Positions 2 to 41,127 of a stretch of DNA of 64,000 nt are shown here, in pieces (within the stretch, counting starts at the first letter, position 1; each line of letters opens with the position of its first letter). The translations under genes and the position numbers were made by a program. Under the pieces are notes generated by a model. The model had not been told where the DNA came from and made no database searches. It was given only the letters and a program-made list of their open reading frames with translations. Origin of the DNA: Desulfobacteraceae bacterium (lineage in GTDB: Bacteria; Desulfobacterota; Desulfobacteria; Desulfobacterales; SKZT01); contig JAABTQ010000003.1 in the NCBI GenBank assembly GCA_011389745.1, forward strand, positions 11,520-75,519. Direction: 5' to 3'.

Positions 2-445
2 GACAACCAATTTCCTTTTGCCCGAATGTGGGAAACTCCCGGAGTATGGCCCCATGAAGAACCTCTTTTGGTCATGAAAGACGGCGTTGTTCCGTTTTCC
101 GGCGGAGAAGCCATCTACCGAAGTCTGCCCATGGATCAGATAAGATCGCCGATCCCTCTGGACCATCCGGACCATATTCTGCTGGGTCAAAAAGGATACC
201 ACAATTTCTGCGCACCTTGCCATGGGCCAAATCACGATGGAATAGGGACAGTCGGCCAAAGTTTTGCACCGCTTCCCACCGACCTAAGAAGTGAAAAAGT
301 ACAGGCCTATTCCGAAGGAGAAATGTTTAAAGATATCAGCTATGGTGAGGAAGGAAAACGTCAGCCTCCCCTGGCGACAACCATCGATATGACAACCCGG
401 TGGCAAATCATTGCCTATGTCAGATCTCTCGGGCTCCGCCCCTGA
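2..445 (+). CDS. monohaem c-type cytochrome (class I, ActE-like); 5' end probably upstream of window
   Basis: The protein has a single CxxCH haem site (FCAPCHG) and a C-terminal RWQIIAYVRSL helix. The frame is open from base 2 to the first ATG at 26 with no stop. Confidence 0.75.
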   Translation, partial: DNQFPFARMWETPGVWPHEEPLLVMKDGVVPFSGGEAIYRSLPMDQIRSPIPLDHPDHILLGQKGYHNFCAPCHGPNHDGIGTVGQSFAPLPTDLRSEKVQAYSEGEMFKDISYGEEGKRQPPLATTIDMTTRWQIIAYVRSLGLRP

Positions 446-3095
446 ATATGTTCACCCCTTGAAAAACAATCCGGATACATGCGACCTTTGCGGCCTGAAT
501 CTTGCCTCGGGTATCCGGAGACTAACCCGCAAAGGTCAAGAATATCGGTTTTGTTGCATCGGATGCAAACAGGTATTTCGCATGCTTGCCGATGCCACCG
601 AAAATCCCGACATTTCATCCTTTAAAGATACTGAAATATTCAAACAATGTCAGGCTCTGGGAATTATTCCCCGCAACGACCCGGAAACAGAAAAAAAACA
701 GGCTGATTTTTCTGAAAATCAATCTGAAATATCCGAAGAAATTGAAAATGACCATCTGCTTCAGCTCCGGCTATCGGTGGAAGGCATGTGGTGTCCGGCC
801 TGCGCATGGGTCATCGAAAATTCCCTGTTAAAACACAACGGTGTTTTCAAAGCCTCCTGCAATTTTTCAACAGATCGCATAGCTTTATCATATGACCCGG
901 TTAAAACATCACCTCATCAAATATCCAGGGCCATAAACAGCCTGGGATATACGCTTTCAATTTCCGGTGAAACATCAGAATCAAAACAGCGGAAAAAAGA
1001 ATTTATCCGGTTCGGTATCTCAGCATTTCTGACCATGAATGTCATGATGCTGTCTTTTTCATTATACTCCGGTTTTTTTACCGAGCTTTCCGTCGACAGT
1101 ATCCGCTACATCTCCTGGCCTATATTATTGATGGCTACGGTGGTGCTGGTTTACGGGGGACAAAAAATTCACCAAAAAGGATGGGCCCCGTGGCGATCAT
1201 TCGGATTCGGCATGGAAACATTGATCAGCGCGGGATCTTTATGCGCCTATTTTTTCAGCGTTTATCATTTTTTATCCAACAGCATTCATCTTTATTTTGA
1301 TACATCTTCCATGCTGATTACCCTGGTGCTGCTGGGAAAAATTCTGGAAAGCCGTGCAAAAGAAAGTGTTGTCAAAGATCTGGAAAGCTTTTTTTCTCTG
1401 GTTCCCAACAAGGTTCGGATTACCACACCGGCGTTTCCTGACGGAAAATACGTATCCGCCAGGCAGCTTATAGAAGGTGATTGTTTTATTCTGGAAGAAA
1501 ACGAAATTGCTCCGGCGGACGGGCTGGTTATTGACGGCAGGGGCGCCATGGATGAATCAACTCTGACCGGAGAGGCAGCGCCGAAAAATAAAACAGCCGG
1601 TGACCGTATCACAAGCGGCACACGGATTATTTCAGGCAAACTTATTGTTAAAGCCGAAATCATCGGAGAAAACTCCGTACTGGGCCAGATGATCCTTATA
1701 ATGGAAAAGGCACTTGGGCAAAAGACTCCTTTGGAAGGAAAAACCGATACTGCCTTGAGATGGTTTGTCCCAATGATTTTATTTTTGGCTGTAGGAACCG
1801 GCCTGGTTGGAATTTTAATTGGACTTTCCCCTGAAAAGGCAACTGTGCGTGCCGTCACCGTGATGGTTATTTCCTGTCCTTGTGCCCTGGGAATCGCCAT
1901 TCCTCTGGCCCGTGTGGCTGGAATTTCGCTGGCTGCCCGCCAGGGTATCCTCGTGCGGGATTTTTCCGCATTTGAGTCGGCCCCAAATATTGACACCGTT
2001 GTTTTCGATAAAACCGGCACCCTTACCACCGGAGATTGGCGCATTTTAAAGGTGGACAGCATCCCTCCCTGGACAGAAGATGAGATCATTGCACTGGCAG
2101 CCGGGCTGGAACAAAATTCAGAACATCATATCGGCACGATTATCCGGCAGTACGCCCGGCAAAAAAAAATCATTCTGTCCGGTGTCTCACAAATTTTAAT
2201 TCATGAAAACGGAGTTTTCGGAATTTTTGAAAATAAACAGATCAGAATCGGGTCAGAATCTTTTTGCTCCCTGACCTGTGACGAAATTGCAACCGGTTTG
2301 AACAATTTATCCCTTCATAGTGGAAAAACAGCAGGTAATTTAAACAAGTTATCCCAATCCACCGGGGAACTGGCGGAGGATTCGGACCGTTCCTTTCTCA
2401 TCAGTAGGGAAATGGCGGGTGATGCCGACCTTGACTCCCTCTACCAGCGGGAGAGGGCCGGGGTGAGGGAGTTAAAGTCGCACAATTCAGATGATCAGGC
2501 CATACCCTCATTTGTTTATTTAACTATGGGCAGCAAGATTATCGGCCGGATCATCTTTGGCGATCAAATTAAAAAAGGGGCGATTGAAACGATCCAAAGC
2601 CTTCATGAAAGACGTTATCAAACAGTTATGGTTTCAGGAGACAATCAAAACGCTACCTTGAAAGTCGCCCAAGCTCTTGGCATTCAAAATGCTCACGGCG
2701 AAATGACCCCTGCTCAAAAATCCGATTTTATCAGCAGGTTAAAAGGAAAAGGAAAAACCGTTGCCATGGCCGGCGACGGCATAAATGATGCCCCGGCCCT
2801 TGCAGGAGCGGATCTGGCCATGGCGGTTCACGCAGGAAGCCTTCTGGGAAAAGAAGCCGCCCATCTGACCCTTATGAGAGGTGAGCCATTGCAGATCATC
2901 GATTTTTTAGGCCTGGCCCGAAGGGTCAACAGGAAAATATACCAAAACCTGATTTTTTCGTTACTGTACAATGTTATCGCTATTCCCGTGGCCATGGCCG
3001 GCCTTCTGTCGCCTCTTGTGGCTGTCTGCGCCATGCTTCTGAGCAGCCTGAGCGTTACCGGTAATACATTGTTATTGATGAAAAAAAATCGGTAG
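411..3095 (+). CDS. P1B-type heavy-metal (probably Cu+) translocating ATPase, CcoI/FixI-like
   Basis: P-type ATPase motifs are present: LTGEA (TGE), SCPCALGIA (CPC), DKTGTLT and GDGINDAP. The N-terminus has a CDLCG...FCCIGCKQVF metal-binding domain and one HMA CxxC (GMWCPACAW). The start overlaps the cytochrome gene by 35 nt. Confidence 0.92.
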   Translation: MPMSDLSGSAPEYVHPLKNNPDTCDLCGLNLASGIRRLTRKGQEYRFCCIGCKQVFRMLADATENPDISSFKDTEIFKQCQALGIIPRNDPETEKKQADFSENQSEISEEIENDHLLQLRLSVEGMWCPACAWVIENSLLKHNGVFKASCNFSTDRIALSYDPVKTSPHQISRAINSLGYTLSISGETSESKQRKKEFIRFGISAFLTMNVMMLSFSLYSGFFTELSVDSIRYISWPILLMATVVLVYGGQKIHQKGWAPWRSFGFGMETLISAGSLCAYFFSVYHFLSNSIHLYFDTSSMLITLVLLGKILESRAKESVVKDLESFFSLVPNKVRITTPAFPDGKYVSARQLIEGDCFILEENEIAPADGLVIDGRGAMDESTLTGEAAPKNKTAGDRITSGTRIISGKLIVKAEIIGENSVLGQMILIMEKALGQKTPLEGKTDTALRWFVPMILFLAVGTGLVGILIGLSPEKATVRAVTVMVISCPCALGIAIPLARVAGISLAARQGILVRDFSAFESAPNIDTVVFDKTGTLTTGDWRILKVDSIPPWTEDEIIALAAGLEQNSEHHIGTIIRQYARQKKIILSGVSQILIHENGVFGIFENKQIRIGSESFCSLTCDEIATGLNNLSLHSGKTAGNLNKLSQSTGELAEDSDRSFLISREMAGDADLDSLYQRERAGVRELKSHNSDDQAIPSFVYLTMGSKIIGRIIFGDQIKKGAIETIQSLHERRYQTVMVSGDNQNATLKVAQALGIQNAHGEMTPAQKSDFISRLKGKGKTVAMAGDGINDAPALAGADLAMAVHAGSLLGKEAAHLTLMRGEPLQIIDFLGLARRVNRKIYQNLIFSLLYNVIAIPVAMAGLLSPLVAVCAMLLSSLSVTGNTLLLMKKNR

Positions 3096-5857: not shown

Positions 5858-6619
5858 ATGAACAATGCAATCAAAAATGCTGCATTGGAACAATCGGCTC
5901 CGGCAAATAATAATCCAAATAATATACCAATCAATAAACAAAAATCGATCATCAAAGCGCTGGCATTCCTTCTGTTTGTCATCGGCGCCCTGCTGGTTGT
6001 CAACTTTTCACCGCTAAAAGGTTACCTGAAAGCGGATCAACTGGAAACGTTTATTGAAACCGCAGGTCTTTGGGCCCCGGCGCTGTATATTGTTTTATAT
6101 GTGGTGGGTGTCTGCCTGTTTTTACCGGGTACACTTCTGACCGGTTTGGGGGCCGCCATATTTGGAGCATACTGGGGATTTGTATATGTCTGGATCGGAG
6201 CAATGATCGGGGCTTCAGCAGCGTTTTTTATCGGCAGGACCCTTGCCCGGGACTTTGCGGCGTCTTTGATCGGTGACAGGCTTAAGCGCTATGATCAGGC
6301 CATAGAGCGAAACGGATTTGCCACGGTATTGTACCTGAGACTGCTGTATTTTCCGTTTACTCCCATGAATTTCGGGATGGGGTTAACGGCTGTTCGGTTC
6401 CGGGATTACTTTTTTGGCACCGGTTTGGGTATTATCGTAGGCACCTTTATTTTTACTTTTTTTATCGGCACATTAAAAGAAGTCTGGGTCTCAGGTGATT
6501 GGGGACAACTGCTGTCTTTCAAGGTGTTTTTTTCCGTCGGCATTTTTATTTTCTCATTTTTTATTCCCAAAATTATCAAAAGTCTCAAGCATGAATCCGA
6601 ATTGCAGAAAGGAGGTTAA
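5858..6619 (+). CDS. TVP38/TMEM64 (DedA-related) family membrane protein
   Basis: The protein is multi-pass hydrophobic with an FLPGTLLTGLGAAIFG motif. The ATG at 5858 is preceded by AAGGAGG. The ORF-track TTG at 5843 lies inside that RBS. Confidence 0.8.
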   Translation: MNNAIKNAALEQSAPANNNPNNIPINKQKSIIKALAFLLFVIGALLVVNFSPLKGYLKADQLETFIETAGLWAPALYIVLYVVGVCLFLPGTLLTGLGAAIFGAYWGFVYVWIGAMIGASAAFFIGRTLARDFAASLIGDRLKRYDQAIERNGFATVLYLRLLYFPFTPMNFGMGLTAVRFRDYFFGTGLGIIVGTFIFTFFIGTLKEVWVSGDWGQLLSFKVFFSVGIFIFSFFIPKIIKSLKHESELQKGG

Positions 6620-6760
6620 TATGAAAAACAAATCTGCCTGGCGTGGAGCCTACAGGGTAAATAATCCAAAAGAAGTTTTTTTTACTTGATATTAAGTTGT
6701 ATAATTTTTTATTAAAATGATTCGATTGTAACTTTTTCCACATAACAGATTAGGACATTT

Positions 6761-15091: not shown

Positions 15092-15202
15092 GTTTCTAAA
15101 ATTTGCCATCCAAAAGCATTTTAATATAAGCTGTTTTTAGATTGAAAACACATAAGCATTGGAATATTAATTATTTTAAAACATCAGATAGGGAAGACTT
15201 TA

Positions 15203-15460
15203 ATGCCTGAAATATGTCGTTTTTTCGGAATTATAATATTTATGAACTATAATGACCATGATCCTCCTCACTTTCATGCCAGGTATGAGGATCAGGAAAT
15301 TACTATGGAAATCAAGAGCAGGATCGTTAAAGGCCGGATGTCACAGAGAGCACTTCGAATGGTTTTTGAATGGTCTGAAATCTACCATGAAGAACTACTG
15401 GAAAATTGGCGGCTTGCAAGAGAACGTAAGCAACTTGAAAAAATCCCGCCACTGCCATAG
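15203..15460 (+). CDS. DUF4160 domain protein
   Basis: MPEICRFFGIIIFMNYNDHDPPHFHARY is the characteristic N-terminus of this family. Confidence 0.8.
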   Translation: MPEICRFFGIIIFMNYNDHDPPHFHARYEDQEITMEIKSRIVKGRMSQRALRMVFEWSEIYHEELLENWRLARERKQLEKIPPLP

Positions 15461-15470
15461 GGAGGAATAT

Positions 15471-15725
15471 ATGTTTCTGCACGTTACTAATGTGATTTAT
15501 TTGAAGAACTACCAGTTACGACTGGAATTTGACGATGGGAAAATCAAGGATATAGACTTGAATGATGAATTGTATGGTGAAATATTTGAGCCGCTGAAAG
15601 ATACTGAACTTTTCAAGAAAGTTTATATTAATCCGGATACCGGCACTATCGAATGGCCAAATGGAGCTGATTTTGCACCAGAGTTCCTTTATGAATCAGG
15701 GCGGGAAATAAGGAAAAGTGCTTGA
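15471..15725 (+). CDS. DUF2442 domain protein
   Basis: MFLHVTNVIYLKNYQLRLEFDDGKIKDIDL is family-typical. The ATG at 15471 follows a GGGAGGAA RBS. It is paired with the upstream DUF4160 gene. Confidence 0.8.
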   Translation: MFLHVTNVIYLKNYQLRLEFDDGKIKDIDLNDELYGEIFEPLKDTELFKKVYINPDTGTIEWPNGADFAPEFLYESGREIRKSA

Positions 15726-15753
15726 AAAACTTTGGTAAAAAAGAACGGCTATT

Positions 15754-15830
15754 TAGCGCTTGAACGAAAACTCCCCTCCCAGTGGGAGGTACTGGGGGAG
15801 GGAATTATGGACTTTTCGTTCAAGCACTAT
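15754..15830. repeat. composite nested palindrome (REP/MITE-like), possible terminator
   Basis: The outer arms TAGCGCTTGAACGAAAA / TTTTCGTTCAAGCACTA have 13 perfect bp plus 3 of 4 more. The inner elements are CCTCCC-AGT-GGGAGG and CTCCCC...GGGGAG. Confidence 0.7.
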
Positions 15831-15882
15831 TTAGAATTTTTTTAAGCAATTGCCCTAAAATAGCGGATTACTGATACCGAGC

Positions 15883-17221
15883 ATGAACAAGGAAGCACTG
15901 AAACAGCTTGAAAACGACCTCTGGCGAAGCGCGGACACGCTGAGAGCCAATTCGGATCTCAAATCCACCGAGTATTCCACCCCGGTTCTGGGGCTCATCT
16001 TCTTGAAATTTGCCGACAACCGGTACCGCCGCTTTGAAAAGGAAATTCTTCGGGAATATACCCGGCTCAAAGGCACCCGCCGGGAAAAACCTTTAAGTGA
16101 CATTGCCATTGAAAAGTGCGGTTTTTATATTCCGGAACATGCCCGCTATGATTATCTGCTAAATCTTCCGGAAAAAGAGGATATGGCCAGCGCCATCAAA
16201 AAAGCCATGGAAGCCATTGAAGAATACAAACCCGAGCTTCGCGGCGTGCTTCCATGGGATGAATATTTCCGGCTGACCCGCACGGACAAAACCATTCCTG
16301 CCCAGTTGCTGAAAAACTTCTCCAATATTCCATCAAATGCCGAGGGAGATATTTTCGGCCAGATTTATGAATATTTCCTGGGCAACTTTGCCATGGCCGA
16401 AGGCCAGGGCGGAGGCGAATTCTTTACGCCCCGTTCGGTGGTGCGACTGATGGTGGAGATTATCGAGCCTTTCGGAGGCAAGGTCTTTGATCCGGCCTGC
16501 GGCTCAGGAGGCATGTTCGTGCAGTATGGAAAAGCTGGCTGAAAACAAGGAAAAGATCGGCCCTGTTGCGGAACAGCTTCTGGAAGTGCTGGAAAACGGC
16601 GGCGGCAAACAAGCGGTGGGGGATCTGATGGCACAATGGGGAGGACTCAAAAAACTGACGGCTCAGTATGACCGATATCTTGCCGATGATTTTCATGATC
16701 CGGATATCAGCAGGAAAAACAGCGCCCAGCACTCGCTTCGGGAAGCTTTTGATCCGTTTTTTAAAAGTCTTCATGAGGGAATGAAACAGTTGGGAAAGAT
16801 CATCCGGCACCATGAACGGGAGCAGGCCGAGGCCGCCAAAAAGGAAAACAAAAGGTCGGCTGCGGACCGGAAAACCAAAGCATTGAAAACGGCTCTGGAA
16901 GAACTTCAGGCAGGGATCAAAGATGCTGAAAGTTTTTTCAAACATATCCACTGGCTCCAGGAACGTTTTCCGGAAGCTGAATACGAGGACGTCACCGGGC
17001 TTTGCAAACTGGCCACTATCGAGGAGATCAAAGAGCAGGATTATTCCCTGAATCCGGGAAGGTATGTGGGGGTGGTGATTGAGGAGGATGGTAAGACCGA
17101 GGAGGAATTTATTGAGGAGTTGCTGGGTATGAATGATGAGCTCCAAACCATCGATGATGAAGCCAATATCTTAAATAAAATAATATCCCATAATATCAGA
17201 AAGCTAGTTGGAGAAATATGA
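15883..17221 (+). pseudogene. hsdM: type I R-M methyltransferase HsdM with internal deletion and frameshift
   Basis: The N-terminal HsdM domain runs through motif I (FDPACGSGGMFVQ) and stops 6 codons later. The frame switches near 16524 into a coiled-coil C-terminal tail ending ...DYSLNPGRYVGV. No NPPF/NPPY catalytic motif occurs in any frame. Confidence 0.85.
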
Positions 17222-18432
17222 ATTTTTCTGATAAGAAGAAATGCATCCTTGGCGATTTAGTTACCTTCAAGAGAGGTTATGACTTACCCGTTTCCATGCG
17301 AACGGAAGGCATTTATCCTGTAGTTTCCTCCAGTGGTATAACAGGATTTCACAAAAATTTTAAAGTTGAAGGCCCAGGTGTTGTGACCGGACGATACGGT
17401 ACACTTGGAGAAGTTTTTTATGTTTCGAGTCGGTTTTGGCCTTTGAATACAAGTCTTTATGTTAAAGATTTCAAAGGGAATGACCCTCGTTTCATGAGTT
17501 ATTATCTTCGCACCGTGCTGTCCTCAAGTTTTAACTCCGCTGGCGCTGTTCCTGGTGTTAATAGAAATGTATTACATAAACTTTCAGTACCTATGCCGCC
17601 CAGAGAACAAAAAAAAATCGCCGCGATCCTTACTGCCTATGACGACCTGATTGAAAACAACAAACGCCGGATTGACTTGCTGGAAAAAATGGCCGAGGAG
17701 ATTTACCGGGAATGGTTTGTGCGCTTTCGGTTTCCAGGTTATGACAAGGTAAAGTTTGAGAAGGTTGTGCCGGTGGGGTGGCGAACAGGAAAAATTTCTG
17801 ACGCCGCTTCTTTAAGGTACGGTTTTACAGAATCAGCCCTCGAAAATTCTAAATTACCAAAATATCTGCGTGTAACAGACATCAACAAGAAAAGTTTCAT
17901 TAACTGGTCAAAAGTACCGAATTGTCAAATTGATGAATTCCATTTTGAAAAATATATGCTGAAGAAAGGTGATATTGTAATTGCTAGAATGGCTGATCCT
18001 GGGAAGGTTGCAATCATTGAACAAAATATAAAAGCCGTGTTTGCATCTTATTTGATTAAGATTGAATACGATCCTAAAAAGGTTACACCTTACTTTTTGT
18101 TTTACACATTGAGCTCTAAATATTATCTGGGCCTTTTTTCCGGAGCAGATTCCGGATCAACCAGAAGTTCAATTAACGCTGGTGCAATCGGTAACACCTC
18201 TTTTGTTTATCCAGAAATTGGATTAATGAGATTGTTTGATAAAACAGTTTCTGTTTTGCGGGAACAAATAGTGAATTTGAATATGATTTGTAATAATTCA
18301 GAGAGAAATAAAGGCATGGTTCTTCCCCGCCTCATATCCGGCAAACTATCAGTTGAAGACCTTGACATCCAATTTCCACCAAGTATGCTTGAAGAAACAG
18401 AACCTGAACCACAGGAAACCGCTTATGGCTAA
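17218..18432 (+). CDS. hsdS: type I R-M specificity subunit HsdS (apparently intact)
   Basis: Two target-recognition domains are separated by the central conserved helix EQKKIAAILTAYDDLIENNKRRIDLLEKMAEEIYREWFVRFRFPG. A C-terminal conserved helix ends ...LPRLISGKL. Both ends keep their 4-nt and 8-nt overlaps with the neighbouring genes. Confidence 0.9.
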   Translation: MNFSDKKKCILGDLVTFKRGYDLPVSMRTEGIYPVVSSSGITGFHKNFKVEGPGVVTGRYGTLGEVFYVSSRFWPLNTSLYVKDFKGNDPRFMSYYLRTVLSSSFNSAGAVPGVNRNVLHKLSVPMPPREQKKIAAILTAYDDLIENNKRRIDLLEKMAEEIYREWFVRFRFPGYDKVKFEKVVPVGWRTGKISDAASLRYGFTESALENSKLPKYLRVTDINKKSFINWSKVPNCQIDEFHFEKYMLKKGDIVIARMADPGKVAIIEQNIKAVFASYLIKIEYDPKKVTPYFLFYTLSSKYYLGLFSGADSGSTRSSINAGAIGNTSFVYPEIGLMRLFDKTVSVLREQIVNLNMICNNSERNKGMVLPRLISGKLSVEDLDIQFPPSMLEETEPEPQETAYG

Positions 18433-19872
18433 TTTTATCTCCGAGGATCAGATCGAGCAAGCCATTTTGCAAAAGCTCCATACCCAGTATGGTTTTGAGG
18501 TGCTCAACTGCTTCACCCAGAACCCTGAGGATCTCAATGACCGGTCCAATCGTACCCATAAGCGGGATGTGATCCTGGAAGATCGATTAAAAGAAGCTTC
18601 CATCCGTTTGAACCCTTCCATTCCCGAGCCGGTGGTCGATCTTGCCGTGGCCCGGCTGACCGACAAACGGCAGGCCATGTCCCTTGTTGCAGCCAACCGG
18701 GAAATCGACGCTCTTATCAGGGACGGTATCCCGGTGGAGTATGAAGCCCCGGATGGTAAAAAAGTCAGGGACCGGGTCCGGGTTATTGATTTTTCCGATC
18801 CTTGGGCCAACCGGTTTCTGGCCGTGTCCCAGCTCTGGATCAAAGGCGAAATCTATTTTCGGCGGTCCGGCTGCTGGATGATGCTATCGATCAGGGCATG
18901 GCCTTTTGCCTGGAAAAAAAGATCCATATTGCCGGCATTTTGAAAAACCGGAATATCTTTAAAAATATTGGGTTGTTCAATCAATACGCCGATATTTTGC
19001 TGGGCAATGACGACTGGCAAAAAACTTTTAATGTTTATGAAAATACCATTACTTCACTTTATGAAGCATGCAAGCCCGAGGTGCTGGGAAAAGATACCTG
19101 CCGGGTGGTTGCAGTGTTTCAGTATCTGCGGGGGGTGATCGACAGTATTATTGATCAGCAGGATATCGATGCCGTGAGTTTGCGAATCGGTGAGTTGCTG
19201 GATGAAAGCATTGTCGTGGATAAACCGGAGGAGTTTGTTGCAGCCGGAGGAAAGCCTGAGTATCAAATTGTACAGACCGGAAAAACATGGGATCTGAGTA
19301 AAATCGATTTTGAAAGACTCAAGGAAAATTTTCAGCACGCCCCCTACAAAAATATTGAAATTGCCGACTTGCGTACATTTATCGAAATCAAGATCGAACA
19401 GATGCTCCAACAGAACATGACCCGAACCGATTTTGCCCAGCGGTTGCAGGAGATTGTCAATACTTATAACGCAGGCGGATCGACCAATGAGAATTACTAC
19501 CAAGAAATAGTGAACCTTGCCAGGGACTTGAAAGATGAAGATGAACGGCATATCCGGGAAGGTTTGACCCCGGATGAGCTGGAGCTGTATGATCTGCTGA
19601 AAAAAGACAAAATGACCCATGAAGAAAAGAAAAAGGTCAAGCTGGCCGCCAAATCTCTTCTGCACCGGTTGCTTGAAGAGCACCCAAAAGTGCTGGTCCA
19701 GGACTGGCACAGGGATTCCCAGACCAAAATGATTGTCCGCTCTGCCGTTGAAAAAGTGCTGCATGAAAAATTGCCGGAAAGCTACGACCGCTTTTTGTTT
19801 ATGAAAAAGTGCGACCATATCTTCGATATGATGGTGCAGTATGCCGGCAGCGGGCACAAGTGGGCGGCATGA
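18425..19872 (+). pseudogene. hsdR: type I restriction subunit HsdR with internal deletion and frameshift
   Basis: The N-terminal ~145 aa (MANFISEDQIEQAILQKL...WIKGEIYFRR) are followed by a frame switch near 18865 into a C-terminal DUF3387-like region. No Walker A, DEAD/DEAH box or helicase-C motifs occur in any frame. Confidence 0.85.
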
Positions 19873-19893
19873 ACCCCATAAGGAACAAAGGAA

Positions 19894-20556
19894 ATGGCCA
19901 AACGGATCAACGAACTACCCAGACATGACCGGCCCCGTGAAAAAATCCACAGTAAAGGAGCCGGTGCATTGTCCGATGAGGAACTGGTGGCGATTTTACT
20001 GGGTTCCGGTATCAAGGGGCATGATGTGATGACCGTTGCCGGACGGATTGTCAGGCTGGTGGATGACCATCACGGAAGACCGGCTTTGGCTGATCTTCAG
20101 AGACTGGAAGGAGTGGGGCCCGCCAAAGCGGCTCTGGTATCCGCAGCCCTGGAATTTGCCCGCCGAAGGATTAGACCGGAAAGGATCAAGATTAAAACGC
20201 CAATTGACGTGCTGCCCCTGATCCGCCATTACAAGGACCGCAAACAGGAACACTTTCTGTGTCTTTCCCTCAACGGGGCCAATGAAGTCATCACCACCCG
20301 TGTTGTTTCCATCGGTCTGGTCAATAAAACCCAGGTCCATCCGCGGGAAGTCTTTGCCGACCCCATCACGGACCGGGCTTCAGCCGTTATCCTGGCCCAC
20401 AATCATCCATCAGGCGACCTCACCCCGAGCAAAGAGGATATTGCTCTTACCCGTCAGCTAAAAGAGGCCGGGGAAACTCTCGGCATTGCTGTGCTGGACC
20501 ATATTATTTTCGGCCGGAAAAGCCATTACAGTTTTTTGGAACACGGTTGCCTGTGA
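19894..20556 (+). CDS. radC: RadC-like JAB/MPN domain protein
   Basis: The JAMM motif HNHPSGDLTPSKEDIALT is present, with an N-terminal helix-hairpin-helix-like GVGPAKAA. Confidence 0.9.
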   Translation: MAKRINELPRHDRPREKIHSKGAGALSDEELVAILLGSGIKGHDVMTVAGRIVRLVDDHHGRPALADLQRLEGVGPAKAALVSAALEFARRRIRPERIKIKTPIDVLPLIRHYKDRKQEHFLCLSLNGANEVITTRVVSIGLVNKTQVHPREVFADPITDRASAVILAHNHPSGDLTPSKEDIALTRQLKEAGETLGIAVLDHIIFGRKSHYSFLEHGCL

Positions 20557-20842
20557 TTTGCATTTGTGATCAGAAACCAACAAGGGAATGTGTTATATAA
20601 TTGGTGCAATGACTGAGTGCCAAAGATTAATTTGCTATGCCGGTCTCCTCAGAATGACGGTTTTTAAAACTTGCCGGAAGTTTGTGGCCTTCGCCGATAT
20701 TACTGATACAAGCCGGCAAAATCACTCAGATTGAGGTTAAAAAACTGTTTTCTTACGAATTCAGCACAATGGACGATAAACCGGCGTGATAAAAATTATT
20801 CAAAATCTCAGTTCATAACCTCGCTGCGCAGGCCGGCCGCCC

Positions 20843-23278
20843 CTATAAATCATTTACGGCATGTCGACACTCAAAATGTTTATACATTTCAAAGGTTTGT
20901 ATGTGTGCTTCTTCAAAGGAACGGTTCTCCATCAGTTTTCGGGCATTACTTCCCATACGACGCCTTTTCTCGCAATTTTTCAGCAACATTTCAATGGCCT
21001 TCACCCAGGCTTCCACGCTGTTTTCCGTAACCACCAGACCGGTTTGACCAGGCTGCATATTTTCATGGGGCCCTCCCTGGTTGCTGACAATCACGGGAAT
21101 GCCCGAAGCCTGGGCTTCCAGTACCACATTGCCGAAGGTATCCGTATTGCTGGGAAAAACAAACAGATCACTTGAGGCATAGACTGCCGGAAGGTCATTA
21201 CCTTTCAGATAGCCGGTAAAAGTACATGGCAGCCCTGTCATAGCCTGCTGCATCTCGGTCCGCCATGGACCATCGCCCACCAGCACCAGATGTAAATCAG
21301 CATACTTTGACATCAATGTTTTAAAGACATCCACCAGCAATGGAAGGTTTTTTTCACGGGAGATTCGCCCGACATACAGCAGGCTTATGGCATTTTCGAT
21401 TTTGAGACGGTGTTTCAAAAAACCGTTGCGCTTTGCAGGATGAAACCGGTGAATATCAATTCCCCGGGGGTAGAGAGTGATTTTAGAAGCGTTCAACCCC
21501 TTGGCCGCCAGCTCATTTCCAGTGGCCTGTGAGGGGACATAAATGGTATCCATCTGCGCGTAATACCAGAGGATATATTTCCATGTCAGTTCGGCAATGG
21601 CGGCATCACCGGTCAAAAACTGAGCATACTGGGGTACGGCGGTGTGATATGTGGCGGTAATGGGCAGTTTAAGGATACGGGCAATGGCCAGAGCGGCCAG
21701 TCCGATGGCTCCTGGAGTGGCGCTGTGAATATGGGTGATACCTTTTTCATAACAGTAGTTGAGCATCTCCAGCAAGGGCGGATAAAAGATTTTCTGTTCG
21801 GGGTATTCAGGCAATTCATAAATACCGATGGGAGTAAAATTCTCAATGCCGGGTTGATTTGCGTGTGGCTGGTTATCACAGGTAATAATGGTCAGATTCT
21901 GTTTATTTTTGGCTGCGGTCGCCACCTGTTGCTGAAGGGTAAGGGCGACACCATTGATTTCATAAAAGGTATCGGTAAAATGCGCTACGCGAATTTCCGC
22001 GGATTTGTTCCCACAGTCTTTTGTAGAACTGAACCGTGAAGACACTTCTGACGTAAGACGGCGATCTTTGCTGAAAAGAGAAAAGGCCACAAAATAGGGT
22101 GCGAGCAAGGCATATAGACCGCCGGCCGAACCAATGGTTTGAAACAGGTTAAACACATCAGCACCGGCTATTTGATCCATCAGGGGGTCGGCAAAATGGC
22201 ACAAGGTACGGTTAGAAACCTGATTCACAAATTCAAACCAATGTTTTTCAGGACGTTGGGGTGTATTATCAGGTTTTGCTTCATGAATATGAGGATTTTT
22301 GTGCATAAATCGAAGGGTTTCCTGTTGTAACAATTCCAACAGGGGATGCGGCCATTGATGGGTGTTTCGGCCGCGCAACCGGTAACGCCACAGGCTGTAG
22401 AGACGGGGCAGCAGACGGACGTGGCCTTCGCATCCGGGAGTCAGAGACTTTTCCATAAATCTGAGCAGTTGATTTTCCTGAACACATCCGTTTAAATTCA
22501 GCTTGTTCTTGTAAAACTGAAAAGCGATGCTATAGAGGTTATGAGCCAGAGTGCGTGGGCTGGATGGCCTGCTGATGACTTTTGTATTACCCTGTCGAAG
22601 ACCATTCAATAGCATTTCCAGGGAATCGTCGCCTTCAATTTCTGTAAAGGCATGCGCGATGGTCAGGGCGCTATGATCATCGGACCCGGCCACCAGATAT
22701 TTTTTCCAGGGCTCCGGCATTGATGGCATCCTATCGTGAGTTTCCGCCAAACGGTTTATGTCTTCCGGTGTCAGGTTTTCAAGGATGAGTTGCAGGAAGC
22801 GGTTCTGCTCGGGATTGCGAGCACCATTTATTTCAAAAATGCGGAATAGCAGCAGAAGTTTTTCAAAATGAGTAACCGTCAGACGATCATTGATACTGAA
22901 AAGTGGATGGGCCAAGGCGTGGACAATATGCTGCGAGTTCAGCCAGTTGGTCAGTTCGTAAATATTTTTACGCAATTTCTGAATTTCCCGGTGTTGTGCT
23001 TCATTTATATGATAGGCTAGCACATGTATTTTACAGCCATTTTCCGGAAAATAAGTGGTGATTTCCTCACTTACAAAAGTGCCCGGCAGATGAGCGATCT
23101 CCAGCGCACCATCAATGGTGTTGTGATCCGTGATGGTAACCATGGACATGCCGCGCCGGCGGGCAATGTGATAGATCTGTAATGGATCGGTAAAGCTTTC
23201 AGGGCAGTTGATTTTTTGCAGTACCCACTGTGAAGGTCTTTTGGAGTATTTGGAGTGAACATGCAGATCGACGCGCAT
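20843..23278 (-). CDS. fusion protein: N-terminal PHP phosphoesterase domain + C-terminal GT4 (group 1) glycosyltransferase
   Basis: The N-terminus MRVDLHVHSKYS...ITDHNTIDG...GSDDHS carries PHP metal ligands. The C-terminus carries GRISREKN...VGDGP...FVFPSNTDTFGNVVLEAQASGIPVI (GT-B EX7E region). The ~200-aa linker contains one hydrophobic segment. Confidence 0.85.
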   Translation of the reverse strand: MRVDLHVHSKYSKRPSQWVLQKINCPESFTDPLQIYHIARRRGMSMVTITDHNTIDGALEIAHLPGTFVSEEITTYFPENGCKIHVLAYHINEAQHREIQKLRKNIYELTNWLNSQHIVHALAHPLFSINDRLTVTHFEKLLLLFRIFEINGARNPEQNRFLQLILENLTPEDINRLAETHDRMPSMPEPWKKYLVAGSDDHSALTIAHAFTEIEGDDSLEMLLNGLRQGNTKVISRPSSPRTLAHNLYSIAFQFYKNKLNLNGCVQENQLLRFMEKSLTPGCEGHVRLLPRLYSLWRYRLRGRNTHQWPHPLLELLQQETLRFMHKNPHIHEAKPDNTPQRPEKHWFEFVNQVSNRTLCHFADPLMDQIAGADVFNLFQTIGSAGGLYALLAPYFVAFSLFSKDRRLTSEVSSRFSSTKDCGNKSAEIRVAHFTDTFYEINGVALTLQQQVATAAKNKQNLTIITCDNQPHANQPGIENFTPIGIYELPEYPEQKIFYPPLLEMLNYCYEKGITHIHSATPGAIGLAALAIARILKLPITATYHTAVPQYAQFLTGDAAIAELTWKYILWYYAQMDTIYVPSQATGNELAAKGLNASKITLYPRGIDIHRFHPAKRNGFLKHRLKIENAISLLYVGRISREKNLPLLVDVFKTLMSKYADLHLVLVGDGPWRTEMQQAMTGLPCTFTGYLKGNDLPAVYASSDLFVFPSNTDTFGNVVLEAQASGIPVIVSNQGGPHENMQPGQTGLVVTENSVEAWVKAIEMLLKNCEKRRRMGSNARKLMENRSFEEAHIQTFEMYKHFECRHAVNDL

Positions 23279-23605
23279 CAGATTCCTTTCTTCTTATTGT
23301 TTATGGAAATATGGAATTTACCAAATGTTTCTGCGCGTCAATTATCTCAGGTTGATTAAAAAATGATTACAATTACAATAATATTTGGTTAATTTTTTAT
23401 TCCTGATCCACAGATTGATGAAGGTATTTAACTTTTGTCCCGACGCAAGGGTTTTCTTCCGTCGAAAAGATCACAGGCCAAATAATACCGGATATCTGCC
23501 ATCCAATATTTAAAAAAGTCCCGATCTCTTTTTAATTAAGGCCCCTCCCCATTTGGGTTGAACGCTCCTTCACAGGTTTTTCAAAATCAATGGGTCGTTT
23601 TGAGT

Positions 23606-23875
23606 TCAATCCTCCGTATTTATTTTCAGATAGGTTTTGCATACCGGATATGAAGCGCACCTGAATCGAATTGTATGATTTTCTTTCATATACAGATGCA
23701 TCCTGGCCCCGCATTTTGGACAAGCGGGCCTGTTTTCGATATTTTTTCTTGGTGAATCCGCAACAAATTGTCGACTGCAAACCAGACATTGATATTTTTG
23801 TTTGCCATCGGGAGTCTTTCCGTATTTATAAAGCGCATCATCTTTGCAGCCGGGGCATTTTATGTATTTATTCAA
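23606..23875 (-). CDS. small double zinc-ribbon protein (IS1/IS1595-type N-terminal Zn finger + topoisomerase-type C4 finger)
   Basis: The first finger is CPGCx17-YQCLVCSRQF and the second is CPKCGARMHLYMKENHTIRFRCASYPVCKTY. No transposase catalytic ORF is adjacent. Confidence 0.65.
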   Translation of the reverse strand: MNKYIKCPGCKDDALYKYGKTPDGKQKYQCLVCSRQFVADSPRKNIENRPACPKCGARMHLYMKENHTIRFRCASYPVCKTYLKINTED

Positions 23876-40566: not shown

Positions 40567-41127
40567 TTGAGAATTATTGGCGGAAAATTTAAAGGAAGGC
40601 GGCTTTTTTCAGTAAAAGGCTTCAGGGTACGTCCCACAAAAGACAAGCACCGGGAATCCATTTTCAACATGATTTCTCAGGATATTGCAGGGACAACGGT
40701 TCTGGATCTTTTTGCAGGGACAGGCGCGCTCGGCATTGAAGCGCTAAGCCGGGGAGCGGATTTTGCCGTATTTGTCGATAGCTATCCTTATGCCTTGTCA
40801 GCTATTTCGAAAAATATACAAGCGTGTCACCTGGAATCCAGAGCAAAAATTTTTAGATGGAACATATTGAAAAATTTAAATTGTTTAAATCCATACAAGT
40901 TTGATCTGGTTTTAATGGACCCTCCCTATAACATTGCAGCTGTGGCCCACTCGCTTTTAAATCTTCAGCAAAGTGAATGTCTGAAAAATGAAGCGGTGGT
41001 TGTTGTTGAGCATGCTTTGGATGAACCTTTTCCTGATCAACTTATAAGTTTTAAGCAATATGACCAGCGACGCTACGGAAAAACCCTTGTTTCTTTTTTC
41101 AATTTTATGCTAATGGAATCCGCTTGA
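40567..41127 (+). CDS. rsmD: 16S rRNA (guanine966-N2)-methyltransferase
   Basis: RIIGGKFKGRRL, DLFAGTGALGIEALSRG and DPPY motifs are present. The start is TTG. Confidence 0.88.
   Translation: MRIIGGKFKGRRLFSVKGFRVRPTKDKHRESIFNMISQDIAGTTVLDLFAGTGALGIEALSRGADFAVFVDSYPYALSAISKNIQACHLESRAKIFRWNILKNLNCLNPYKFDLVLMDPPYNIAAVAHSLLNLQQSECLKNEAVVVVEHALDEPFPDQLISFKQYDQRRYGKTLVSFFNFMLMESA

Follow-up and report, generated by a model that had tools for sequence, protein, structure and literature searches.

Why does a Type I restriction-modification (R-M) locus keep a whole specificity gene between two catalytic genes that have lost their cores? The hsdM-hsdS-hsdR operon remnant at positions 15883 to 19872 on the forward strand of the window (the 64-kb stretch of DNA that we analyzed) has exactly this arrangement: the cores of hsdM and hsdR are gone, and hsdS is whole (Table 1). 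We consider it quite likely that the remnant belongs to a horizontally mobile hsdM-hsdS-hsdR-radC cassette that was recently inactivated and is in the early phase of decay by deletion.

TABLE 1 Features of the hollowed R-M locus and its surroundings
Feature	Position	Strand	Remarks
DUF4160/DUF2442 gene pair (context)	15203..15725 (DUF4160, 15203-15460; DUF2442, 15480-15725)	+	Directly upstream of hsdM
Cassette homology block	15773..20567	+	BLASTN, ~91-92% nucleotide identity to the intact hsdM-hsdS-hsdR-radC of JGI contig L174
hsdM 5' fragment	15883..16525	+	Codons 1-214 plus 1 nt; stops just past SAM motif I (FDPACGSGGMFVQ)
hsdM deletion junction	16525..16526 (16525/16526)	+	734 nt lost, intact-gene nt 644-1377
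hsdM 3' fragment	16526..17221	+	Codons 460-690 plus stop
hsdS, intact	17218..18432	+	404 aa, two target recognition domains (TRDs); own GGAG Shine-Dalgarno; overlaps hsdM stop (ATGA)
hsdR 5' fragment	18425..18867	+	Codons 1-147 plus 2 nt; ends ...IYFRRS just ahead of nuclease D...ExK residues
hsdR deletion junction	18864..18870 (taken as 18867/18868)	+	1,783 nt lost
hsdR 3' fragment	18868..19872	+	Codons 743-1076 plus stop; T1RH-like_C / DUF3387 domain
radC, intact	19894..20556	+	Last gene of the conserved cassette; UPF0758_N and RadC JAB domains

Extent of the deletions

The breakpoints were fixed by intact relatives at ~92% nucleotide identity (JGI contigs L003, L004, and L174), which encode an HsdM of 690 amino acids (aa), an HsdS of 404 aa, and an HsdR of 1076 aa. 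The fragments remaining in the window are orthologous to this intact operon (91 to 92% nucleotide identity, same order, same overlaps) and align with it ungapped except for two deletions. The first-pass annotation had recognized two separate deletions emptying the cores of hsdM and hsdR and leaving hsdS whole, and this structural reading was right; its guesses of ~0.8 kb lost near position 16524 and ~1.7 kb near 18865 compare with actual losses of 734 and 1,783 nucleotides (nt), with junctions within a few bases of those positions.

The hsdM deletion spans residues 215 to 459, including NPPF at residue 285, and shifts the reading frame (734 is 2 modulo 3), such that the 5' open reading frame (ORF) continues out of frame to a stop at 16540 to 16542, yielding a 219-aa product. 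The 5' fragment shares 96% amino acid identity with residues 1 to 217 of the intact 690-aa HsdM and matches HsdM_N and N6_Mtase positions 3 to 64 of 311 in Pfam and MTase_I positions 7 to 213 of 653 in PADLOC. The 3' fragment opens exactly on the codon for native Met460, 13 nt downstream of an AGGAGG, for a putative product of 231 aa, and it matches N6_Mtase positions 263 to 308 and MTase_I positions 499 to 651. The N6-adenine methyltransferase domain is incomplete: motif I (FDPACGSGG) is kept, and N6_Mtase positions 65 to 262 are missing. A tblastn search with the intact HsdM found no trace of residues 218 to 458 anywhere in the 64-kb window, whatever the frame, and NPPF was not found in any frame, so that profile and translated searches agree with the initial description of an HsdM readable to SAM motif I whose core is absent in all frames. 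A methyltransferase cannot be made from this gene, which has lost NPPF along with most of the catalytic domain. A weak tblastn match to HsdM at positions 40690 to 40953, considered as a partner methyltransferase, is an RsmD-like rRNA methyltransferase.

The hsdR deletion, whose size was set by gene-length and frame arithmetic, removes residues 148 to 742 of 1076, and with them PD...IELK, GSGKS306, DEAH407, TGTP434, and QTIAR683 (motif VI). It too is frameshifting (1,783 is 1 modulo 3), and the 5' ORF continues out of frame to 18943 for a 172-aa product. The 5' fragment matches HSDR_N positions 2 to 123 of 198; the 3' fragment matches T1RH-like_C positions 42 to 304 of 329, and its first in-frame ATG lies at 18898, for a putative product of 324 aa. 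Across all frames of the 64-kb window, HsdR residues 161 to 731 left no trace (tblastn, intact HsdR as the query), and no ResIII or helicase Pfam domain was matched, such that HsdR has neither a PD-(D/E)xK nuclease nor an SF2 motor. The Pfam and tblastn results bear out the earlier view of an HsdR N terminus followed by a C-terminal DUF3387-like region without Walker A, DEAD, or helicase motifs. With the codons for the nuclease catalytic residues and the entire SF2 motor lost, the gene cannot yield a restriction subunit.

HsdS contains two Methylase_S stretches and matches PADLOC Specificity_I positions 6 to 397 of 405. It aligns colinearly with the HsdS of L003, also 404 aa long, and is identical to it at 370 of 404 residues, which together with the domain profiles upholds the claim that the protein is whole and has both TRDs. 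An exact-protein lookup of the window HsdS returned no match. The overlaps proposed to couple translation are preserved in the sequence, ATGA at 17218 to 17221 (hsdM/hsdS) and ATGGCTAA at 18425 to 18432 (hsdS/hsdR), with a Shine-Dalgarno-like sequence ahead of each.

Domain searches confirmed the flanking DUF4160/DUF2442 pair and radC. A DUF4160 relic of 30 nt occurs at the same position in relatives. Beyond the homology block, the flanks are unrelated to those of JGI contig L174 (BLASTN and boundary sequences), and the hsdMSR-radC cassette is mobile, its genomic context differing between genomes. A promoter and terminator scan of positions 15100 to 21000 gave counts equal to the shuffled expectation. 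Antisense ORFs at 16460 to 17146, 19054 to 19857, and 18448 to 18843 have no Pfam match and were rejected as shadow ORFs.

Judged by its sequence, the locus is a dead R-M system, neither HsdM nor HsdR having what a functional Type I enzyme calls for. In annotation, hsdM and hsdR are best given as pseudogenes and hsdS as intact and probably functionless, and neither this Type I restriction barrier nor the methylation motif that goes with it is expected in the organism.

Origin of the junctions

An assembly collapse had been offered as one reading, in which a collapse or misjoin produced both junctions and the true genome has intact hsdM and hsdR genes. The source is apparently a draft assembly (a 164.8-kb contig), and the Logan contigs of SRR29700001 break within the hsdM 3' fragment (16927 to 16956), indicating some graph branching in the locus. 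Both junctions, however, are crossed without a break and at 100% identity in this unitig-based assembly, which is independent in method and may share reads with the source assembly: one Logan contig equals window positions 15805 to 16956 at 100%, and the other equals 16927 to 23634 with 1 mismatch. A repeat search in the genes of the intact relatives found no direct repeat whose position matched the breakpoints, where there is only 0 to 5 nt of microhomology, and two independent repeat-less collapses within 2.3 kb are implausible. Given a second assembly that spans both junctions, and no such repeat in the intact genes, we regard an artifact as extremely unlikely.

Microhomology, suggested at the outset as a possible feature of the junctions, is at most slight in hsdM (0 to 2 nt) and is present in hsdR (2 to 5 nt, TC/TCCG), as indicated by a breakpoint that floats over a few nucleotides. 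There is also an imperfect repeat of 21 to 23 nt, with one copy at the right hsdM breakpoint and its partner ~85 nt from the left one.

The two frameshifting deletions would have arisen by illegitimate recombination, putatively through slippage or template switching or through microhomology-mediated end joining. Loss of hsdR first, or of both genes at once, would be the viable order of events, because loss of modification under active restriction is harmful. When genome and metagenome contigs were scanned with HsdS for closer relatives with only one of the deletions, the best matches were only 59 to 64% identical.

Chance, recency, and selection

To the first-pass annotation, deletions removing exactly the catalytic cores seemed unlike random decay. 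The catalytic core is lost with any large internal deletion in hsdM or hsdR, and in Monte Carlo placements of two random deletions of these sizes, hsdS was spared in ~20%, and one deletion fell in hsdM and one in hsdR in ~17%. With deletions that are recent and similar hollowed loci elsewhere (both below), the claim is unsupported.

Pairwise dN/dS values of the fragments against an intact relative range from 0.04 to 0.22, the highest belonging to hsdS. When changes were assigned to branches with an outgroup, 17 nonsynonymous and 55 synonymous ones fell on the window branch, and 34 and 78 on that of the intact relative. There was no signal of relaxed selection in the fragments on the window lineage, which bear the same signature of purifying selection as the intact relative, from which we conclude that the deletions are recent. 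The neutral period occupies at most ~10% of the window branch, corresponding to at most ~0.5 expected nonsense hits in hsdS. Given so recent an origin of the deletions, a whole hsdS is the default expectation without selection; the gene would be whole for want of time to be hit. The hsdR 3' fragment has 2 nonsynonymous against 19 synonymous changes on the window branch, a very low nonsynonymous count that persisting constraint on the fragment would also explain.

Selection could instead have kept hsdS as an orphan specificity subunit that adds a second methylation/restriction specificity to the HsdM and HsdR of a same-family system elsewhere. The gene has kept its full length, both TRDs, and a Shine-Dalgarno sequence of its own, and subunit sharing is known from Staphylococcus aureus, in which one hsdR serves two hsdMS pairs (PMC12554148). 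But tblastn located no other hsdM or hsdR within the 64-kb window, recency already accounts for a whole hsdS, and the gene tops all segments in dN/dS. Moreover, the window and the Logan contig differ by one single-nucleotide polymorphism only, which is nonsynonymous and lies within hsdS (the private variant I10 in the window versus N10 in the contig). We therefore find a selectively retained subunit improbable, and we rate as very improbable a related reading in which hsdS, possibly with the open C-terminal fragments of HsdM and HsdR, is retained as a specificity donor for such a system. With regard to a donor role, the fragments open on ATGs that are native or nearly so, and selection on them shows no sign of relaxation.

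It is also possible that loss was favored, restriction going first and modification second, by relief from cassette cost or self-restriction or by the admission of foreign DNA, or that one complex template-switching event made both deletions. Two large deletions within at most ~10% of the lineage branch accord with this, as do the mobility of the cassette and the higher transformability of natural hsdR-deleted strains (PMC12554148). However, copies of the cassette decayed by deletion occur across many unrelated genomes, and their breakpoints differ; moreover, once hsdR is dead, the loss of hsdM brings no obvious gain. We think selected disarming or a single complex event unlikely; deliberate disarming is possible and is not needed. 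Two large deletions in a 6.5-kb operon over a short neutral period are somewhat more than a clock-like neutral model predicts, an excess for which selected loss or one complex event could account.

Decayed relatives and known systems

Recent deletional decay, our preferred reading, has parallels in other loci of the same HsdM/HsdR family, in which the HsdR N terminus is joined to the C-terminal domain, hsdM is shortened, or lone C-terminal relics persist. A Nitrotoga metagenome-assembled genome (GCA_030645845.1; locus L008, protein P0121) has deletions in M, S, and R; JGI L173 has lost M and S, and its hsdR and radC are split; L175 (P0295) encodes M, S, and R proteins of 442, 330, and 446 aa; and L089 and L091 are lone C-terminal relics. 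Breakpoints vary by locus, and several of these copies are in frame, whereas those of the window are out of frame. The hsdS gene is damaged in L008 and L175 but intact in the window.

A whole-library phmmer search combined with Pfam yielded motor-less proteins consisting of HSDR_N and T1RH-like_C (P0261, P0295, P0380, and P0382). Their C-terminal domains begin at profile positions 30, 139, 193, and 207, and because these starts differ, the proteins represent independent deletions. In a broader form of the very improbable donor reading, such recurrent remnants might act as assembly-competent, restriction-dead subunits. No conserved short-HsdR family with a fixed breakpoint emerged, the examined L008 and L175 being decayed and the window version out of frame, and no short HsdM family occurs among the best 120 HsdM homologs, all of 671 to 751 aa. 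The short architecture was thus not seen in many intact homologs, the finding that would have told against deletion. A deletion hotspot was rejected as the main reading: the right hsdR breakpoint lies 3 to 5 codons from that of the Nitrotoga protein, but the other motor-less variants break elsewhere.

The locus is a clean, datable case, with exact junctions, of early deletional decay in a mobile R-M cassette. A whole hsdS between a hollowed hsdM and hsdR is what chance and recency predict, and it raises no new question.

The locus shares with Type I R-M systems the order hsdM-hsdS-hsdR, overlapping stops and starts, HsdM_N, motif I of N6_Mtase, a two-TRD HsdS, HSDR_N, and T1RH-like_C, and it differs in an HsdM without motif IV. 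The family as a whole also departs from them: at 690 aa, its intact HsdM is of unusual length and has a coiled-coil tail, and the operon includes radC as a conserved fourth gene. Among solved structures, the closest relatives are EcoR124I HsdR (PDB 2W00, family IC), which the intact relatives match over residues 122 to 707 (E ~1e-27), and the M subunit 3KHK (E 2e-66). The EcoR124I-alignable part of HsdR (122 to 707) is almost exactly the region deleted in the window (148 to 742).

Degradation of R-M systems into solitary components has been described (Oliveira, Touchon & Rocha 2014, PMC4176335), and in S. aureus, strain JSNZ has a natural internal hsdR deletion (delta705-876) and RN4220 has an hsdR W197* truncation (PMC12554148). 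As in the window, an internal deletion or truncation of hsdR kills the Type I system in these strains, and the other subunit genes are readable. The locus in the window differs in that its two deletions are much larger and both break the reading frame, and because hsdM is deleted as well, no M2S methyltransferase can form from the locus. In Lactococcus lactis, plasmid-borne hsdS genes combine with chromosomally encoded HsdM and HsdR. Like the window hsdS, these genes are without a functional adjacent hsdM or hsdR, but they are stand-alone and functional and have demonstrated partners, whereas the hsdS of the window, with no known partner, lies between fresh pseudogenes.

The hsdMSR locus and its two deletions

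The Type I restriction-modification operon of the window consists of five co-directional ORF pieces on the plus strand (15883-19872), with hsdM and hsdR each broken in two around a complete hsdS. PADLOC profiles agree with the Pfam picture, the hsdM fragments covering positions 7-213 and 499-651 of the 653 in MTase_I and the hsdR fragments positions 5-129 and 743-999 of the 1029 in REase_I. The hsdR pieces gave no Pfam match to ResIII, DEAD, or helicase-C, and tblastn with intact homologs as queries found neither the missing HsdM and HsdR middles, in any frame, nor a second hsdM or hsdR in the 64-kb window. A weak tblastn match with HsdM stems from an RsmD-like (Cons_hypoth95) small methyltransferase gene at 40567-41127 that is unrelated to this locus. 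Short overlaps persist between hsdM and hsdS (ATGA, 17218-17221) and between hsdS and hsdR (ATGGCTAA, 18425-18432), both with Shine-Dalgarno-like sequences upstream, and the locus lies between a DUF4160/DUF2442 pair and radC. The first-pass annotation, which had described hollowed-out M and R subunits lacking NPPF and helicase motifs, an intact S subunit, preserved overlaps, and these same flanking genes, is thus borne out in every detail.

Coordinates and profile matches of the locus, radC, and stand-alone HsdR relics
Feature	Location	Strand	Basis
hsdM 5' half	window 15883-16525	+	ORF; HsdM_N + N6_Mtase profile 3-64 of 311 (Pfam)
hsdM 3' half	window 16526-17221	+	ORF; N6_Mtase profile 263-308 of 311 (Pfam)
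hsdS, complete, 404 aa	window 17218-18432	+	ORF; Specificity_I 6-397 of 405 (PADLOC)
hsdR 5' half	window 18425-18867	+	ORF; HSDR_N 2-123 of 198 (Pfam)
hsdR 3' half	window 18868-19872	+	ORF; T1RH-like_C 42-304 of 329 (Pfam)
radC	window 19894-20556		UPF0758_N + JAB
radC	L005 17356-18018		UPF0758_N + JAB
radC	L173 8071-8733		UPF0758_N + JAB
radC	L174 13244-13915		UPF0758_N + JAB
P0238, 392 aa	L091 8001-9179		stand-alone HsdR C-terminal ORF; recurs on 5 contigs
P0205, 399 aa	L089 8001-9200		stand-alone HsdR C-terminal ORF

When the joined HsdM fragments were used as the query, all homologs obtained were ~690-aa proteins (671-751 aa among the best 120, the best match being 97% identical). The best match comes from JGI contigs L003 and L004; these two and L174, a 1.4-Mb JGI contig from the same lineage, encode HsdM of 690 aa, HsdS of 404 aa, HsdR of 1076 aa, and radC, and align with the window at 91-92% nucleotide identity, ungapped except for two deletions. 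The hsdM deletion comprises 734 nt (nucleotides 644-1377 of the intact gene), with its junction exactly between 16525 and 16526 and 0-2 nt of microhomology, and it removes residues 215-459, NPPF at 285 among them. The hsdR deletion, sized from gene lengths and reading frames, comprises 1,783 nt; its junction can be placed anywhere in 18864-18870, corresponding to 2-5 nt of microhomology (TC/TCCG), and residues 148-742 are lost, including the nuclease PD...IELK, GSGKS306, DEAH407, TGTP434, and QTIAR683. Because the deletions are 2 mod 3 (hsdM) and 1 mod 3 (hsdR), both shift the frame, leaving predicted stubs of 219 aa for HsdM and 172 aa for HsdR. At 16508-16528, the hsdM deletion has brought an AGGAGG from the motif-I codons to within 13 nt of the downstream native Met460 ATG (16526), from which a 231-aa HsdM C-terminal fragment could conceivably be translated, keeping the coupling to hsdS.

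Two Logan contigs from run SRR29700001 each pass unbroken through one junction, the first matching window 15805-16956 at 100% and the second matching 16927-23634 at 6707/6708 positions. Unitig-type assembly cannot cross a junction without k-mer support in the reads, and an appreciable share of intact alleles with identical flanks would make it break there. The fragment proteins are recorded as well from an NCBI contig of 164,812 bp, presumably the one from which the window derives. Since, in addition, the relatives' intact genes contain no direct repeat that coincides with the breakpoints and could cause a collapse, the assembly collapse raised in the first-pass annotation is unlikely. Across 7.8 kb, the window and Logan differ at a single position, 17246, where T in the window specifies HsdS I10 and A in Logan specifies N10, the residue also seen in the relatives.

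Cassette boundaries and surroundings

Homology with the relatives is confined to window 15773-20567 and the flanks are unrelated; the cassette is far more similar to that of the relatives than are neighboring housekeeping genes. radC follows hsdR in the window, in contigs L005 (Desulfoferrobacter suflitae) to L007, L173, and L174, and in the contig of protein P0122. The unit is therefore a mobile hsdM-hsdS-hsdR-radC cassette. Wherever a copy is reasonably complete, radC lies directly 3' of hsdR, which suggests that the mobile unit includes it as a conserved fourth gene.

The 3' half of hsdS in L174 (9310-9909) is unrelated to that in L003 (12638-13185, equivalent to window 17786-18333), despite the two strains being near-identical (99% at the nucleotide level in the flanks). 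The window has the L003 version, and the difference looks like a TRD2 swap within one cassette lineage. Within L174 6674-10008, hsdM is split by a 1-nt frameshift (499 + 143 aa) and hsdS falls into two pieces (167 + 239 aa), with hsdR intact; indel errors in long reads could account for these splits, or the strain may be decaying along a path of its own.

Upstream of hsdM, the relatives carry a 30-nt DUF4160 relic (DHDPPHFHAR and a stop; L174 6503-6532, L003 9830-9859) at the site occupied in the window by the complete DUF4160/DUF2442 pair (15203-15725). The relatives thus lost this pair by deletion, while what the window lost was the hsdM and hsdR cores. Between DUF2442 and hsdM, straddling the point at which cassette homology starts on the left (15773), is an imperfect 35-nt inverted repeat (15740-15843; 77% complementary, 34-nt spacer, then a T-run) that contains a CCTCCCAGTGGGAGG hairpin. 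L174 also has a ~106-bp repeat (87-88% identity) in two intergenic regions (1950-2051 and 6214-6319), which may be a small dispersed repeat element.

Chance, recency, and decay of the cassette

Other copies of the cassette have decayed along similar lines. In a Nitrotoga MAG (GCA_030645845.1; contig L008), hsdM keeps residues 72-339 and 504-689, hsdS only its C-terminal third, and hsdR is an in-frame 525-aa gene lacking residues ~183-737. The right breakpoint of this in-frame deletion (P0121, L008 10001-11578; ..YK/AELFILLDDA versus ..FRRS/RLLDDA in the window) is only 3-5 codons from that of the window (18864-18870), where the C-terminal domain begins, a nearness that may reflect coincidence or a weak hotspot. 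Contig L173 no longer has hsdM or hsdS, and its hsdR and radC are split; in L089, a piece of hsdM is joined to an HsdR C-terminal relic, and L091 has a lone relic. Such stand-alone T1RH-like_C/DUF3387 ORFs (~340-400 aa) are embedded in long contigs that have no full R-M system. With the Nitrotoga protein as the query, a search of 1.84 billion representatives yielded further motor-less HSDR_N + T1RH-like_C proteins (P0261, P0295, P0380, and P0382), all with different breakpoints, and the P0295 locus is shortened throughout (M, 442 aa; S, 330 aa; R, 446 aa). Internal deletion is therefore a common decay route for this HsdM/HsdR family, and motor-less HsdR has no conserved short architecture.

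When two nonoverlapping deletions of the observed sizes were placed at random in a 6.5-kb hsdMSR operon, 20% of placements left hsdS untouched, and 17% put one deletion entirely within hsdM and the other entirely within hsdR. An internal deletion this large necessarily takes the catalytic core because the core fills most of each gene. Pairwise dN/dS against an intact relative is 0.04 and 0.14 for the hsdM 5' and 3' segments, 0.22 for hsdS, and 0.16 and 0.07 for the hsdR 5' and 3' segments. Polarized with D. suflitae as the outgroup, the fragments show 17 nonsynonymous and 55 synonymous changes on the window branch, as opposed to 34 and 78 on the intact-relative branch. Pseudogene status throughout the branch would predict ~127 nonsynonymous changes in the first three segments alone, versus 15 seen. 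The fragments are estimated to have evolved neutrally for ~1% of the branch and for no more than about 10% (at most ~0.009 substitutions per site). Over so short a period at most ~0.5 nonsense substitutions are expected in hsdS, and its intactness is therefore the null expectation. Given these chance frequencies, this recency, and the similarly decayed copies, the earlier claim that the pattern is unlike random decay is not supported.

Retention of an orphan hsdS serving a remote M/R pair is conceivable but has no positive support in the 64 kb; dN/dS is highest in hsdS, and the only window/Logan SNP is a nonsynonymous change in that gene. Continued function of the fragments would also fit the very low nonsynonymous count of the hsdR 3' segment (2 versus 19), but recency is the simpler account. 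Selected disarming, or a single complex event, fits two large deletions in a short time and is compatible with the data, though not required. We propose instead that a mobile hsdM-hsdS-hsdR-radC cassette was recently killed in the window's lineage by two illegitimate-recombination deletions. The short or absent microhomology would fit slippage or template switching, or microhomology-mediated end joining. Loss of modification is harmful in a Type I system that can still restrict, so hsdR was presumably hit first or both deletions occurred in one complex event.

The locus is a recently pseudogenized Type I R-M cassette, real, accurately described, and ordinary. The solved HsdR of EcoR124I aligns with residues 122-707 of HsdR in this family, nearly exactly the part deleted in the window. 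Degradation of R-M systems into solitary components has been described (PMC4176335), as has a natural internal hsdR deletion in S. aureus JSNZ (PMC12554148).
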